Shown: positions 8,081-12,863 of the stretch, piece by piece
Numbering within the stretch: the stretch's first letter is position 1
Layout of the letters: each line of letters opens with the position of its first letter
NCBI GenBank assembly: GCA_030668875.1
Contig: DAOVER010000045.1
Coordinates: forward strand, 1 to 23,416
Direction of reading: 5' to 3'
DNA: 23,416 nt
From: Candidatus Heimdallarchaeota archaeon
GTDB taxonomy: Archaea > Asgardarchaeota > Heimdallarchaeia > Heimdallarchaeales > Heimdallarchaeaceae
Translations under genes and position numbers: made by a program
Notes under the pieces: generated by a model
The model's database searches: none
What the model saw: the letters and a program-made list of their open reading frames with translations, nothing else
Told to the model about the DNA's origin: nothing

Positions 8081-9364
8081 GTGAGTCCTATTTCCACAAA
8101 GAAATGCCCTATTTGTTATTCTATACTACCTCACAAAGTTGTCTTTTGTCCAGTTTGTGGAACTGAACTTCAAACTAACATTGAAGAGGTTCCCATTGAA
8201 CCTGAAACAGCCATTGAACAAACTTATAATTATCCTACTACTAGACGTTTGTACGGGAATGAACCATTAGAGACATCTAATACTGATGGACCTAATCACT
8301 CTAGCGGAAATCAATTTGCATGGAAAGTTTCTGACTCTGTTCTACCAATTAAAACAAAGAGTCATACCAATTATTCCGAAATGTTTGATCCTCCAAAGAT
8401 TAATTTGCGTTTCATTAAAAGCCTTACTTTAATGGAAATTCTATTATTTTCGGTTTTAGGTCTATCATACACACTACTGTTAATATTTCAAATAGGTCTT
8501 TCAAGCTTATTGATATCTGCCTCTCTTACTTCTTCTTGGATCTACATTACAGTTCTTGTCGTGTCACTTATTCCATCTTCATTGTTACTGTATTTCCTTA
8601 ATCATAAAATAGCTAAAACCTTAACTAAACAAAACACTGAAAACTTGGAATTGCCAAAACGCCAGCTGTTTTCATTCCTTTTCGTGCAAGGAACCCACCT
8701 CTTATCAGTAGGATTAATAGCTGCTGGATTATTGGCCACACTACTGCCGTTAAGGTTTTCAATAGGTTCTATCGCTGTTATTTATATTTTCATAGTAGTT
8801 ACTGCTCTACTAGTTTCTATAATCTCTCCACCTTTTAGAATTGCTAAATTGTTCAATTTTGTAAGAGAATCAGGATCAATACAGAATTATCAAGATTCTT
8901 TTCAATTCCCGAAAATATGTGTGAAAAGATATGTACTAATTAGTGTTTTCTCTTATCTCATTCCCGCGGTTCTATTGGTTTTAGGTCTCCAACATTTTAT
9001 CAATATTTTATCATCAGTTTTTATTCTAAACTATGGAATAAGTATTACCGGTTGGGATATATCTTTAGGAATTCTGCTATGGTTACTATTCACAGTCTCG
9101 ATACTCTTCTCTAGCATAGAAGATGTGAAAACAACTTCATTTTACGAGGCCTTATTACAGAAATTTGTTAATCCTCCATCTCTTAAATGGATAAATCAAG
9201 GCCATAATTCAAATGCTTCTGGTAGATCTGCAGAAATAGTTAATTTCAAAACTGATTCTTCACTGTCGTTCGATTCTAGAAAAGAACTATGTTCAACTTG
9301 CTCGGAGCATCTAGTAGAAGGAGCTGAATTTTGTACTCATTGTGGAAAAAAAATAGTGAGATAG
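8081..9364 (+). CDS. Polytopic membrane protein with double zinc ribbons at both termini
   Basis: N-terminal CPIC...CPVCG, C-terminal CSTC...CTHCG, about 6 long hydrophobic segments between them. Confidence 0.88.
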   Translation: MSPISTKKCPICYSILPHKVVFCPVCGTELQTNIEEVPIEPETAIEQTYNYPTTRRLYGNEPLETSNTDGPNHSSGNQFAWKVSDSVLPIKTKSHTNYSEMFDPPKINLRFIKSLTLMEILLFSVLGLSYTLLLIFQIGLSSLLISASLTSSWIYITVLVVSLIPSSLLLYFLNHKIAKTLTKQNTENLELPKRQLFSFLFVQGTHLLSVGLIAAGLLATLLPLRFSIGSIAVIYIFIVVTALLVSIISPPFRIAKLFNFVRESGSIQNYQDSFQFPKICVKRYVLISVFSYLIPAVLLVLGLQHFINILSSVFILNYGISITGWDISLGILLWLLFTVSILFSSIEDVKTTSFYEALLQKFVNPPSLKWINQGHNSNASGRSAEIVNFKTDSSLSFDSRKELCSTCSEHLVEGAEFCTHCGKKIVR

Positions 9365-9372
9365 AGAGAGAA

Positions 9373-10116
9373 TTACTTTAGTTTTTTGACAATTTGTTTC
9401 AATATTGTTTGTACAGTACTCAACTTGTCTTCAAGTTTTTCCATTCTTTCTACTAATTCGTCAAATTCATCACGAGAAACAGTTTCCGTACTCGCTGGAG
9501 TTTCTGTTATCTGTTTTGTTCCCATTGCTTCTTTAACATCAATAATTCCATCTGTTTCTTCTGGTGCTAAAGCATCTTGAACATTATTTGCTAATAGCAA
9601 TCTGTAAGCAAGAAAATCAAATGTCTCTTTTATATTTTGACCAGTTAAAGCGCTTGTTTCACAATAGAAAAACCTAATTCCGGTTTCGATTTCCAAGCGG
9701 TTACAAAATTCAAGAGCCATATCTCGTGAAACTCTTCTGCTTTCTTCAAGATCGACTTTATTGGCTATCACAAAGTAGGATAAGATACCATTATCCGACC
9801 CTTCTATTGCTTCTTCAATCCAGGTAGAAAGATTAGTCATAGATTTAGCATCTTGACAATCGAAGACCATAATTGCAGCAGTTGCACCTTTGTAGAAAGT
9901 TTTCCGAACAGCTTGATAACTGTCTTGACCTGCTAAATCCCATATTTGGTATGTTATATGATTTTCATTAGTTTCGACTTTTTTTGTAGCGAAATCAGCT
10001 CCTATGGTTTTAAGATAACTAGATTGGAATCCTTTTCCCATGTATCTCTCTCTGATAGAAGTTTTACCTACTGCTCCATCACCAGCTAAAATGAGTTTGA
10101 AGTTCCATTTTTTCAT
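9373..10116 (-). CDS. Rab-like small GTPase (Ras superfamily) with C-terminal linker and coiled coil
   Basis: G1 GDGAVGKTS, G2 YLKTIGADF, G3 WDLAGQ, G4 NKVD, G5 ETSA; RabF-like motifs IGADF, YQIW, FYKGA, MVFD. Confidence 0.95.
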   Translation of the reverse strand: MKKWNFKLILAGDGAVGKTSIRERYMGKGFQSSYLKTIGADFATKKVETNENHITYQIWDLAGQDSYQAVRKTFYKGATAAIMVFDCQDAKSMTNLSTWIEEAIEGSDNGILSYFVIANKVDLEESRRVSRDMALEFCNRLEIETGIRFFYCETSALTGQNIKETFDFLAYRLLLANNVQDALAPEETDGIIDVKEAMGTKQITETPASTETVSRDEFDELVERMEKLEDKLSTVQTILKQIVKKLK

Positions 10117-10128
10117 GATGATACCCCT

Positions 10129-10818
10129 CTAATTATCTTTGTAGCTAGCTAACTCTTCATCTAATTCATCGATGCGAGCTTGACTTTCCAATAGTTTTTT
10201 CTGGAATGTTTCACCAACTTCTGTTTGAGTTTTCTCAAAATGCTCCTTGGCTTCTTCTAGCTCTTTTTTCATCTTGTCTCTCTCTTCCTTTGCTTTCTTA
10301 ATCTCTTCACTCTCTCGTGCCTCTTGAACAGCTTTTGCCATTAGTTCATCAACACTCCCAGAGGAAATATCATATTTAGACGAAACAAGCATTTTTAGAC
10401 TTTCCAATTCTTCTGCACTAATTATCGGTCTGTTAGCTGTCATATCGCTTATTTTTTCTGCTAATGCTTTCTTCTCAATTAATAAATCAGCAACTTGAGC
10501 TTTTAATTTCCTATTTTCATCTGATAATTCAGATGAGTTGCTCAATTCAATGTCGAGTGATCGTCGAAGATGGTCAAGATCATCTGTTCCTTCTCCGAAT
10601 TTATTAACATATTTTACAATCATGGTCGTATATTCTCTAACAATTGGATGCAAGAGATCCCAGTATTCGATTAATTCTCTTTCAACATCCTTCAACCTTG
10701 AATCCTTTGTATCTGGAGGTAGTTTAACAAATACAGGATTGTCTACATTGAATGATGGTAAATAGTCTGGAACATAATTGAAAATTGTTTCTCCTTTATG
10801 CTTTTTTGGCTTTGACAT
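10129..10818 (-). CDS. Hypothetical coiled-coil protein
   Basis: Open frame with E/K-rich heptads over the C-terminal two thirds. Start uncertain: ATG 10818 (MSKPKK) or 10830; the ORF track extends to 10878. Confidence 0.85.
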   Translation of the reverse strand: MSKPKKHKGETIFNYVPDYLPSFNVDNPVFVKLPPDTKDSRLKDVERELIEYWDLLHPIVREYTTMIVKYVNKFGEGTDDLDHLRRSLDIELSNSSELSDENRKLKAQVADLLIEKKALAEKISDMTANRPIISAEELESLKMLVSSKYDISSGSVDELMAKAVQEARESEEIKKAKEERDKMKKELEEAKEHFEKTQTEVGETFQKKLLESQARIDELDEELASYKDN

Positions 10819-10886
10819 AGAATAACCCATGTAAGTTAAATTGTTCGCCAAAATAAACATTACTAAACTGATAAACAAAAAAAAAC

Positions 10887-11183
10887 TTATGATTCTGCTC
10901 TTGATTTCGCTTTACCTTCTTGCTGAAGCAGCGTTTTGTCTAGTTGTAGAAAGCCTTTGAGGATTTCTCTATCGAAAATGATCTCACCAAAATTACAATA
11001 ATTGTCAATTAGTTTTCTAATAGTTTTGTCACTTATACCTTTATCAGTGAATTTACCTATTAAGAAATTCTTAATAGATCCTCGTTTTTTCTTCTTTTTT
11101 CTGGAATGCCATGTGAATTTTGCTCTAAAAATGATTCCATGATAAAGTGTGATTAATGGATTAAATATCGTCATTATACCCAA
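10887..11183 (-). CDS. Small basic hypothetical protein
   Basis: TTG start with GAGGTG 5 nt upstream; co-oriented with small gaps in a four-gene run; shares a helix-G-helix motif with the upstream gene. Confidence 0.7.
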   Translation of the reverse strand: MGIMTIFNPLITLYHGIIFRAKFTWHSRKKKKKRGSIKNFLIGKFTDKGISDKTIRKLIDNYCNFGEIIFDREILKGFLQLDKTLLQQEGKAKSRAES

Positions 11184-11202
11184 AGTTGCACCTCAGAATG
11201 TG

Positions 11203-11550
11203 TTATTTATTTTCATTCTTCTTTAACATTGAAGCAAACCGATCTAAATTGGCTGAATATTCACAGATGATTTTTTCTGCTGTAGTTTTGGTAATTCCTT
11301 CTTCCAATAATTTCTTGTAAATTGTTACAATAGCATCTGCAAAACTGTCAGCTAAATCAACATCATAAATTGCATTTAGAAATTGTTCAACAAGAGTGCC
11401 AACTTCTGCTGAGAGAACTTTAACAATTTCTTTTGTCTGTGAAAAATCTTTTATAGATTTTTTATGTTTTTCTCCCTTTTTATCATTAATATTCTTCTTA
11501 CTCTTCTTGTTAACATAGTTGTTGCTAGCCACCAAATCACCACGTTTCAT
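11203..11550 (-). CDS. Small helical hypothetical protein
   Basis: ATG start directly below a BRE-TATA; C-terminal IYKKLLEEGITKTTAEKIICEY helix-turn-helix-like segment. Confidence 0.8.
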   Translation of the reverse strand: MKRGDLVASNNYVNKKSKKNINDKKGEKHKKSIKDFSQTKEIVKVLSAEVGTLVEQFLNAIYDVDLADSFADAIVTIYKKLLEEGITKTTAEKIICEYSANLDRFASMLKKNENK

Positions 11551-11569
11551 TCTCTTCTCTCGTATAGAA

Positions 11570-11582
11570 TTTAAAATGTTTC
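11570..11582 (-). promoter_or_regulatory. Putative BRE-TATA promoter of the four-gene GTPase operon (likely leaderless)
   Basis: Minus strand GAAAC-ATTTTAAA, TATA 20-27 nt upstream of ATG 11550. Confidence 0.5.
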
Positions 11583-11651
11583 CCCTCTGGGCTATTGTTC
11601 ATAGATAGCACATTTTTGCAATAAAAAACTAGAATAGTTTAAGAAAAACAG

Positions 11652-12314
11652 CTATTTGCTAATTTCTTGAATGGGTTCACTTTTCTTTAGCTGAACGGAG
11701 ACATAAACGAATCTTTGAATTACAGTTATAACACAAAGACCTGTTAGTGCCATATAGCCAATTGAGAAACCAGTTATTTCAAAACCTAGACTTGCGATAG
11801 CAAGATTGCCAACTTGTTCTCTGAATGTAGGCACTAGAAGATAGACGAACATTAAAACCATTAAAACAAGCCATCTTTCAGCTCGCTCCATGATACCCAT
11901 AGCCATCTTCTTTACTCCAACACTTTCCCCTTTTGCTCTGATATAGCTGATCAGAAGGGAAGCTGTTACCATTATTATTCCTGTAACTAGATCAACTTGG
12001 CTGCTAAATATTATCCCTCCAAAAACGCATACATCACTTACTCGGTCAAAAATACTATCGAGGAAAGAACCTTGTTTGGATTCAAGTTTTCTGTATCTAG
12101 CCACTCCTCCATCTATGAAATCCATCGCTCCTCCAAACCATATAAGTATGAATGCTACTAGGAAATTATCTAAAGCTAGAAATACTCCCGTAGATATTGA
12201 CAATAGCAATCCAATTACAGTGTATACTGTTGGATGAAGACCTAATTTAGCAAAGAAAATGATTACTGGCTGAACTATTCGAGTTAATGGTTCACGGATT
12301 TGGGAAATTACCAT
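11652..12314 (-). CDS. pgsA: CDP-alcohol phosphatidyltransferase, archaetidylinositol-phosphate synthase / PgsA-like
   Basis: Family motif DFIDGGVAR...SKQGSFLDSIFDRVSD; SYIRAKGES...GIMERAER typical of the inositol-phosphate-using subgroup; multiple TM segments. Substrate not proven. Confidence 0.9.
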   Translation of the reverse strand: MVISQIREPLTRIVQPVIIFFAKLGLHPTVYTVIGLLLSISTGVFLALDNFLVAFILIWFGGAMDFIDGGVARYRKLESKQGSFLDSIFDRVSDVCVFGGIIFSSQVDLVTGIIMVTASLLISYIRAKGESVGVKKMAMGIMERAERWLVLMVLMFVYLLVPTFREQVGNLAIASLGFEITGFSIGYMALTGLCVITVIQRFVYVSVQLKKSEPIQEISK

Positions 12315-12491: not shown

Positions 12492-12863
12492 TCAGATTTT
12501 CAAAATTTCATTCATTTCTTCCATTTTAATAAGGAATATTCGCTTGTTGCCTCTCTTATTAGAGGAACTTACCATGTCATATGAATTTTGTGAAAATCTA
12601 TTTCCGATGATTATTGCCCCATCACAGTTCATATCTTCTAACTTGTGCTCTGTTCTTATGATAGTGTTGGTACCTATGCTTTTCTTCCAATGAAAGGCAA
12701 ACACTGCGAATTTTTGATCTTCATTTTCAACAATATATGGTAAAATTCTATTATTTTCATCTAAATTTACTTCACTTAATACCTTTACTTTACCATATCG
12801 ATCGAGAAACTTACCAACTTTCTCCTCAAACATTTTACTTTCCATCTTCTTCATTAAAGACAT
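12492..12863 (-). CDS. Stand-alone Mrr-like PD-(D/E)XK fold protein, catalytic residues apparently missing
   Basis: FEEKVGKFL helix, SIGTNTII, DGAIIIGNRFSQNS and RIFLIKMEEMNEIL follow the Mrr_cat pattern (FE..., vg...v, giivt...Ft..A, i.Lid..el). Confidence 0.6.
   Translation of the reverse strand: MSLMKKMESKMFEEKVGKFLDRYGKVKVLSEVNLDENNRILPYIVENEDQKFAVFAFHWKKSIGTNTIIRTEHKLEDMNCDGAIIIGNRFSQNSYDMVSSSNKRGNKRIFLIKMEEMNEILKI

Follow-up and report, generated by a model that had tools for sequence, protein, structure and literature searches.

What kind of unit is formed by four small genes that lie in a row around a Rab-like GTPase in an Asgard archaeal genome? The locus is part of a stretch of 23,416 nucleotides (nt), hereafter the window, which covers positions 1 to 23,416 of contig DAOVER010000045.1 from a Candidatus Heimdallarchaeota archaeon of the family Heimdallarchaeaceae (assembly GCA_030668875.1; 3.23 Mb, 99 contigs, 92% complete). 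An earlier note, made from the letters alone, had read the genes, here called A, B, C and D, as a self-contained GTPase switch under a single promoter, with a new type of regulator and a coiled-coil effector. Our analysis makes a different arrangement probable: two independent two-gene units placed head to tail, namely a C–D pair, encoding a coiled-coil protein and the GTPase, and an A–B pair. C–D is an ancient Asgard gene pair that has been retained across deep lineages and in paralogues.

The four co-oriented open reading frames (ORFs) lie on the minus strand in the order A-B-C-D: A at 11203–11550 (115 amino acids, aa), B at 10887–11183 (98 aa), C at 10129–10818 (229 aa) and D at 9373–10116 (247 aa). 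The intergenic gaps were 19, 68 and 12 nt, confirming the layout given in the earlier note (19, up to about 68, and 12 bp). B begins with TTG, a start supported by its orthologues, in which an ATG preceded by GAGGTG or GAGGTA stands at this position. The ATG start of C was fixed at 10818 because the N-termini of its homologues are conserved (M-x-x-K-K...). Shine–Dalgarno-like sequences were read before two of the internal genes, again as noted earlier: GAGGTG before B (11188–11193, minus strand; 4 nt upstream of the start codon and kept as GAGGTG or GAGGTA in orthologues) and GAGGGGT before D (10123–10129, minus strand; in overlap with the stop codon of C and 6 nt upstream of the D start).

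Gene D encodes a Ras/Rab-type GTPase (Pfam Ras, 139.8 bits, 7.6e-41; cut-off 21.6 bits), which bears out the Rab-like identity given to it in the earlier note. The motifs of its G domain (residues 1–175; 9592–10116, minus strand) are intact, with GDGAVGKT as G1, T37 in switch I, DLAGQ including the catalytic Gln as G3, NKVD as G4 and ETSAL as G5. The core residues of G1–G5 were invariant or nearly so across the aligned orthologues, and by these motifs D belongs to the Ras superfamily's small GTPases. When solved structures were ranked by similarity, the closest relatives were a Thorarchaeota Rab (7EZB, 3e-35) and then Rab7, with Rab9 also among the best. By eye, the sequences IGADF and FYKGA of D resemble the RabF1 and RabF4 motifs.

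The C-terminus of D is of a different kind from that of eukaryotic Rabs. The last 77 residues of D, which ends in KKLK, are free of Cys, and the same holds for its orthologues; D therefore has no prenylation motif (CC, CXC or CAAX). A variable, flexible linker of approximately 40 aa joins the G domain to a C-terminal helix (residues 215–247; 9376–9474, minus strand). This helix spans 4.5 heptads, with hydrophobic residues at 9/9 of the a/d positions in the best register, and was kept in every orthologue found. Those orthologues include the ones from Helarchaeota and from the families f3 and f4 (lineage labels: f1 is Heimdallarchaeaceae, the family of the window; f1 to f4 make up its order; f6 is a further family of Heimdallarchaeia; f30 is Helarchaeota, an NCBI name). 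Pfam matches of the tail to DASH_Dad3 and MtrG were below threshold and were set aside.

Protein C was modelled with AlphaFold2 (AF2) as all-helical (predicted local distance difference test, pLDDT, 77), with long helices at residues 58–128 and 171–228. Alignments showed that W53, H57, P58, Q198 and F205 are invariant in the family, where they form a W..HP and a Q..F motif. An exhaustive profile search among 1.84 billion proteins found 25 representatives of this family, and the window's C matched the family model at 1.2e-88. The gene is single-copy in 38/40 genomes of the same order. Of 300 Asgard genomes, 56 carried the family; they belong to f1–f4, f6 (11/11) and f30, and it was not found in the searched genomes of f5 (0/21) and f11 (0/76).

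C had no match above noise in Pfam, NCBIfam, PDB profiles or the fold library, and the Pfam and fold searches revealed no recognisable GTPase-binding domain. The profile search of the C family against the PDB gave no hit below E 0.01, and its output was confined to generic coiled coils and designed helical repeats. Foldseek searches of the PDB and shape searches of the Atlas with the C model gave no significant match, and ESM Atlas feature searches with A and C yielded no informative cluster. The following candidate assignments were rejected. The rows for SH3BP5–Rab11a (E 9.9) and for APPL BAR-PH were chance coiled-coil matches to the C model, and DUF730 scored 23.6 bits against a cut-off of 32 bits. 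The Pfam family Rab11-FIP3 matched 4/22 members of the C family, two of which were examined (21.9 and 27.6 bits; cut-off 31.9 bits), and appeared there among many other coiled-coil families.

The earlier note had taken all four genes to be linked. Gene neighbourhoods across Asgard genomes supported this in part: C and D were linked in f1, f6, Helarchaeota and in paralogous pairs, but A–B was unlinked from C–D in the genus g11 of f1, described below. In f1, C is followed by D at 4–12 nt in 5/5 genera. The C homologue of f6 is divergent and lies approximately 230 bp from a GTPase of 390–440 aa, whose tail is a coiled coil and which ends in a zinc ribbon (11/11 loci). In Helarchaeota the gene after C, at gaps of 3 nt and approximately 70 nt, encodes a GTPase of 300 aa whose linker is Pro-rich and which ends in a helix of the same kind. 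Second, paralogous C–GTPase pairs were present in f6, f4 (4-nt overlap) and f2 (2-nt gap). The two genes are often translationally coupled, either by a 4-nt overlap or across a gap of 2–12 nt. In total, roughly 40 linked pairs were identified.

The G domains of the linked and orthologous GTPases were placed in a tree with all strong paralogues of the host genome, which encodes approximately 27 Ras-like paralogues. All linked GTPases, the unlinked orthologues of f3 and one host paralogue (contig C89) formed a single clade (SH-like approximate likelihood ratio test, SH-aLRT, 97), outside which 17 other host paralogues fell. A GTPase gene 1.6 kb from C in an f2 genome (L013), a placement that at first suggested conserved proximity, was rejected as an orthologue of D, being outside this clade. 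The C tree was compatible with the GTPase tree, its base being poorly resolved. The pair in the window thus combines a gene of the C family (1.2e-88) with an adjoining GTPase of the tailed clade (SH-aLRT 97) at a 12-nt gap. This recurrent adjacency, the coupling and the single GTPase clade uphold one part of the earlier proposal, that a coiled-coil protein is co-encoded with the GTPase as its dedicated partner. The literature searched yielded no account of the C family or the C–D pairing, and a Heimdall SNARE preprint proved unrelated to these genes. New here are the distribution of C–D beyond Heimdallarchaeaceae, the paralogous pairs, the monophyly of the linked GTPases, the loss of linkage in f3 and the exclusion of A–B.

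Protein A consists of a Lys-rich, probably disordered N-terminus and a four-helix domain of approximately 75 aa (AF2 pLDDT 63). It matched no Pfam or NCBIfam family, a PDB profile search with the A family likewise returned nothing beyond generic coiled coils and designed helical repeats, and a Foldseek search of the PDB with the model, at this pLDDT, gave no significant match. The first 19 residues of B are hydrophobic and aromatic (hydropathy 0.9–1.8) and are followed by 7–9 Lys/Arg within the next 15, a sequence layout by which B probably sits on the membrane. Next in B comes a helical domain, in which the alignment shows the motif G-I-S..K..R-K-L-I..Y. B is fast-evolving, with an orthologue identity of 35–86% within the genus. 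A match to the Pfam family Mitofissin (17.7 bits; cut-off 27) was set aside. Pfam scans of A, B and C contained no Robl_LC7/Roadblock or longin match, and the AF2 models of A and C were both all-helical, in agreement with the earlier impression that none of the partners of D resembles these proteins.

No A or B gene was detected beyond Heimdallarchaeaceae. Within this family they follow a pgsA-like CDP-alcohol phosphatidyltransferase gene (11652–12314, minus strand; Pfam PF01066, 7.2e-15), and the order pgsA-A-B was kept in 5/5 genera, including g11. In the complete, one-contig genomes of g11, an Mrr-like gene, the pgsA-like gene, A, B and a SIR2-like gene stand in this order, while C–D lies approximately 6 kb away with a zinc-ribbon membrane gene and without A–B upstream. 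Because of this layout, we regard A–B as travelling with the pgsA-like gene and not with the GTPase. C–D occurred without A–B in f6, f30, f4 and f2 as well as in g11, so that the four genes are not inherited as a set.

A paralogue of A, here A', is encoded on contig C29 of the host (30% identity, 7e-14). It belongs to a cassette (C29:96956-99594, L027:2957-5595) in which A' and B' precede a coiled-coil winged-helix protein (HTH_24) of approximately 150 aa; the cassette was also present at L108, L110, L112 and L113. B' (104 aa) contains a basic stretch and an evident transmembrane segment. In Heimdallarchaeaceae the cassette stands behind an MFS transporter gene and is conserved in the genus. 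A combined profile of A and A' matched 301 proteins. In the distant Asgard contexts that were read, one of them from f6 and one Thorarchaeota-named, the A-like gene was always accompanied by a small protein with a transmembrane segment and a basic stretch and by a coiled-coil winged-helix protein, and in none did a GTPase gene stand beside it. B and B' share this layout and a short motif. Their alignment with hhalign was not significant (E 0.13) and covered the G-[IVM]-[PS]..R-K..Y motif region alone, and homology between B and B' is therefore not established. As far as the sequences can tell, A–B is most likely a membrane-associated pair that arose as a family-specific duplicate of the widespread Asgard A'–B'–winged-helix cassette, and not a GTPase regulator pair. 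The idea that A and B belong to a four-gene switch as a new type of regulator is not supported, given their confinement to f1, their separation from C–D in g11 and the cassette of the A family, which is without a GTPase in the contexts read.

The signals between the genes were examined next to their distribution. Upstream of A, an element resembling a B recognition element (BRE) and TATA box, AGGGGAAAC-ATTTTAAA, lies at 11570–11586 (minus strand), approximately 20 nt before the ATG. It recurs in most orthologous loci with readable upstream sequence, and a related variant is present in 3 others. The stop codon of B is immediately followed by a T9 run (10877–10885, minus strand) that resembles an archaeal oligo-T terminator, and T-runs occupy this position in most loci of the genus. 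Approximately 32 nt upstream of the C start, a TATA-like sequence, GTTTATTTT (10850–10858, minus strand), forms a candidate separate promoter for C–D. It was kept in 12/12 loci of the genus, the remaining B–C spacer being variable. Because of this conservation, and because C–D of g11 has no A–B in front of it (L086), C–D probably has a promoter of its own. The promoter-like element under which all four genes had been placed was thus found to be real and recurrent, but the T9 run and the conserved GTTTATTTT between B and C make a single transcription unit doubtful. The sequencing runs listed as holding the stretch were of marine-sediment DNA only, with no RNA run among them.

These observations led us to a model for the C–D pair. 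D, which is catalytically intact by its motifs and has no lipid anchor, would be tied to C in a coiled-coil assembly by means of its tail helix. The W..HP and Q..F patches of C, as candidate contacts to the G domain of D, would read or regulate its nucleotide state. C would then be a stoichiometric partner of D, whether as scaffold, effector or regulator. The tight spacing or overlap of the two genes suggests co-production in a fixed ratio, and the coiled-coil assembly is suggested by the elongated helices of C in combination with the conservation of the tail helix in D; from this we infer both the physical binding and the role of the tail. Sequence does not distinguish between C as a GTPase-activating protein (GAP), a guanine nucleotide exchange factor (GEF), an effector or a scaffold. 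A prediction of the C+D complex scored 0.01, below the mark, and carries no weight for or against binding.

Several points weigh against this interpretation of the locus. A–B abuts C–D in 4/5 genera of Heimdallarchaeaceae; a functional link between the two pairs that is specific to this lineage, or read-through transcription from one to the other, is possible but unsupported. Between B and C, the candidate promoter and terminator are motifs in the sequence only, and C is a predicted binder of D with a putative effect on GTP turnover. C is on a different contig from the D orthologue in f3, also in a 93%-complete genome of 10 contigs. The primary C and GTPase genes of f4 belong to different transcription units, 2.7 kb from each other. 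The member of the GTPase clade on host contig C89 has no adjoining gene of the C family, and the whole genome contains one C gene, so neither an adjacent nor a dedicated C is needed for such a GTPase to exist.

Among the other explanations, the one that survives best is that A–B was recruited in Heimdallarchaeaceae as a membrane adaptor of C–D. B would serve as the anchor, A as the bridge, and the helix of D (or C) would be captured in replacement of a prenyl anchor. The hydrophobic N-terminus of B with its 7–9 Lys/Arg in 15 residues is consistent with this, as are the contiguity of A–B and C–D in 4/5 genera, the short coiled coil with which the third gene of the paralogous A' cassette also starts and the long C branch of Heimdallarchaeaceae (1.29 changes per site). 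We nevertheless consider such a recruitment unlikely: the two units are apart in g11, contact between them is hypothetical, the similarity of B to B' is not significant, and likeness between short coils is generic.

A four-gene operon or machine, with A and B as new GAP/GEF-like regulators and C as the effector, fits the co-orientation, the short gaps and the Shine–Dalgarno-like sites, the A-B-C-D order in 4/5 genera of f1 and the conserved promoter-like element before A. However, A and B are confined to one family and C–D is far older. In g11, moreover, A–B stands with pgsA and C–D alone. The A family is usually partnered by a small transmembrane protein and a winged-helix protein and not by a GTPase, and between B and C there is a T9 run as well as a TATA-like box that is conserved. 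We therefore hold a four-gene machine to be quite improbable. A similarly small probability was assigned to a more far-reaching proposal, in which C founds a dedicated regulator or effector family for one clade of lipid-free Asgard Rab-like GTPases, whose docking would depend on a coiled-coil tail in place of a prenyl group, and A–B was co-opted in Heimdallarchaeaceae to bring this machine to the membrane beside the lipid synthase. If true, it would represent a prenylation-independent forerunner of Rab membrane recruitment. Very unlikely, finally, is an adjacency of C and D that reflects inherited synteny or shared regulation without contact, C being a general cytoskeletal or structural coiled coil that shares a promoter: f3 keeps C and D unlinked and C has no recognisable GTPase-binding domain, but the adjacency recurs in co-directional, divergent and overlapping form, in deeply separated lineages and in paralogues, and the linked GTPases form one clade, a pattern that is unexpected from passive synteny.

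Other members of the C family and of the GTPase clade were found in different settings. Long C-family paralogues of f3 (499–744 aa; L092:2606-4840, L093:3681-5369, L094:2217-3716) combine a W..HP N-terminal module with extended coiled coils and have no adjacent GTPase; a match of Mod_r to one of them was below threshold and was set aside. At other f3 loci (L015, L016, L019-L023), C is followed, in the GTPase's place, by a protein of 360–440 aa with an N-terminal HHH_5 domain (2.2e-10) and a long low-complexity region. Helarchaeota encode two tandem C-family paralogues without a neighbouring GTPase (L042:67-1540, L084:4021-5488), with a C–GTPase pair elsewhere in the same genome. The unlinked D orthologue of f3 is always preceded by a conserved protein of 205–218 aa without a Pfam family (L097:3422-4078, L098:3050-3667, L099:372-998), which may be a different GTPase partner; its homologue in the host genome is at C99:2704-3231 (32% identical). 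The second tailed-clade GTPase of the host (C89:19574-20308, L028:2575-3309) is 34% identical to D and has a C-terminal helix. Upstream of it lies no gene of the C family but a gene for a protein with weak, sub-threshold likeness to the N-termini of archaeal type IV pilins.

Around the four genes, the window contains further conserved neighbours. A convergent gene (8081–9364, plus strand) encodes a multi-pass membrane protein with a zinc ribbon at each end (Pfam zinc-ribbon families). Within its 3' end, 20 nt past the D stop codon, a T8 run (9346–9353, minus strand) is a possible terminator. This zinc-ribbon gene adjoins D in L001-L012 and L085-L088, which are all within Heimdallarchaeaceae, and was not seen beside C–D in the loci examined from other lineages. 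The linked GTPase of f6 itself ends in a CPNCG...CYHC zinc ribbon (L043:1465-2631, L072-L082); that zinc ribbons occur in both proteins may be coincidental or may hint at a shared zinc-ribbon function. On the other side, the pgsA-like gene is adjoined in 5/5 genera (L100-L104) by a gene for an Mrr_cat-like protein with a restriction endonuclease fold (123 aa; 12492–12863).

The reading of the stretch as two independent pairs has consequences for both of them. Asgard genomes encode dozens of small GTPases, almost none of which can be matched to a partner by genome layout. A partner gene that has stayed beside one GTPase clade across Heimdallarchaeia, Helarchaeota and duplications defines a concrete two-protein system, in which the coiled-coil tail, by its inferred role, would offer a lipid-free way to attach a Rab-like switch. 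The separation of A–B from C–D removes the need for work on a four-way complex. It also points to a second widespread, unexplained Asgard cassette, that of A', B' and the coiled-coil winged-helix protein.

Among archaeal systems, the closest comparison is the Thorarchaeota Rab (7EZB; PMC10933270), with which D shares the G domain, the Rab-type switch and interswitch sequences and the lack of a C-terminal Cys. The Thorarchaeota protein stops right after the G domain, whereas D continues with a linker of approximately 40 aa and the conserved heptad helix. In the cultured Lokiarchaeon MK-D1, the genes for small GTPases are reported to be generally located outside operons with candidate regulators (Tran et al. 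2024, PMC10933270); in contrast, D has a conserved adjacent partner gene. In this respect the C–D pair is similar to MglA/MglB and related GTPase–Roadblock pairs, in which a small Ras-like GTPase is likewise encoded beside a dedicated partner, often with translational coupling. The partner itself differs, since MglB-type proteins have a Roadblock/longin alpha-beta fold and C is an all-helical coiled coil.

Elongated coiled-coil partners are also common to eukaryotic Rabs, which act together with GEFs of the Sec2/Rabin8 type, with Rab11-FIP3 and with golgins. IFT22 and IFT27 are lipid-free Rab-like GTPases that are held on the coiled-coil proteins IFT74/81. C–D likewise pairs a Rab-like switch with an elongated coiled coil, and D, like IFT22 and IFT27, is without a lipid anchor. 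By profile and by fold, C is not a member of the Rab11-FIP3, Sec2/Rabin8 or golgin families. It further differs from the eukaryotic coiled-coil partners in being short (229 aa) and without a membrane anchor, and the GTPase in this case carries a coil of its own. C–D is thus a variant of a known theme, the small GTPase that is co-encoded with its partner, with a new partner family and with a coiled-coil tail in the place of the lipid anchor.

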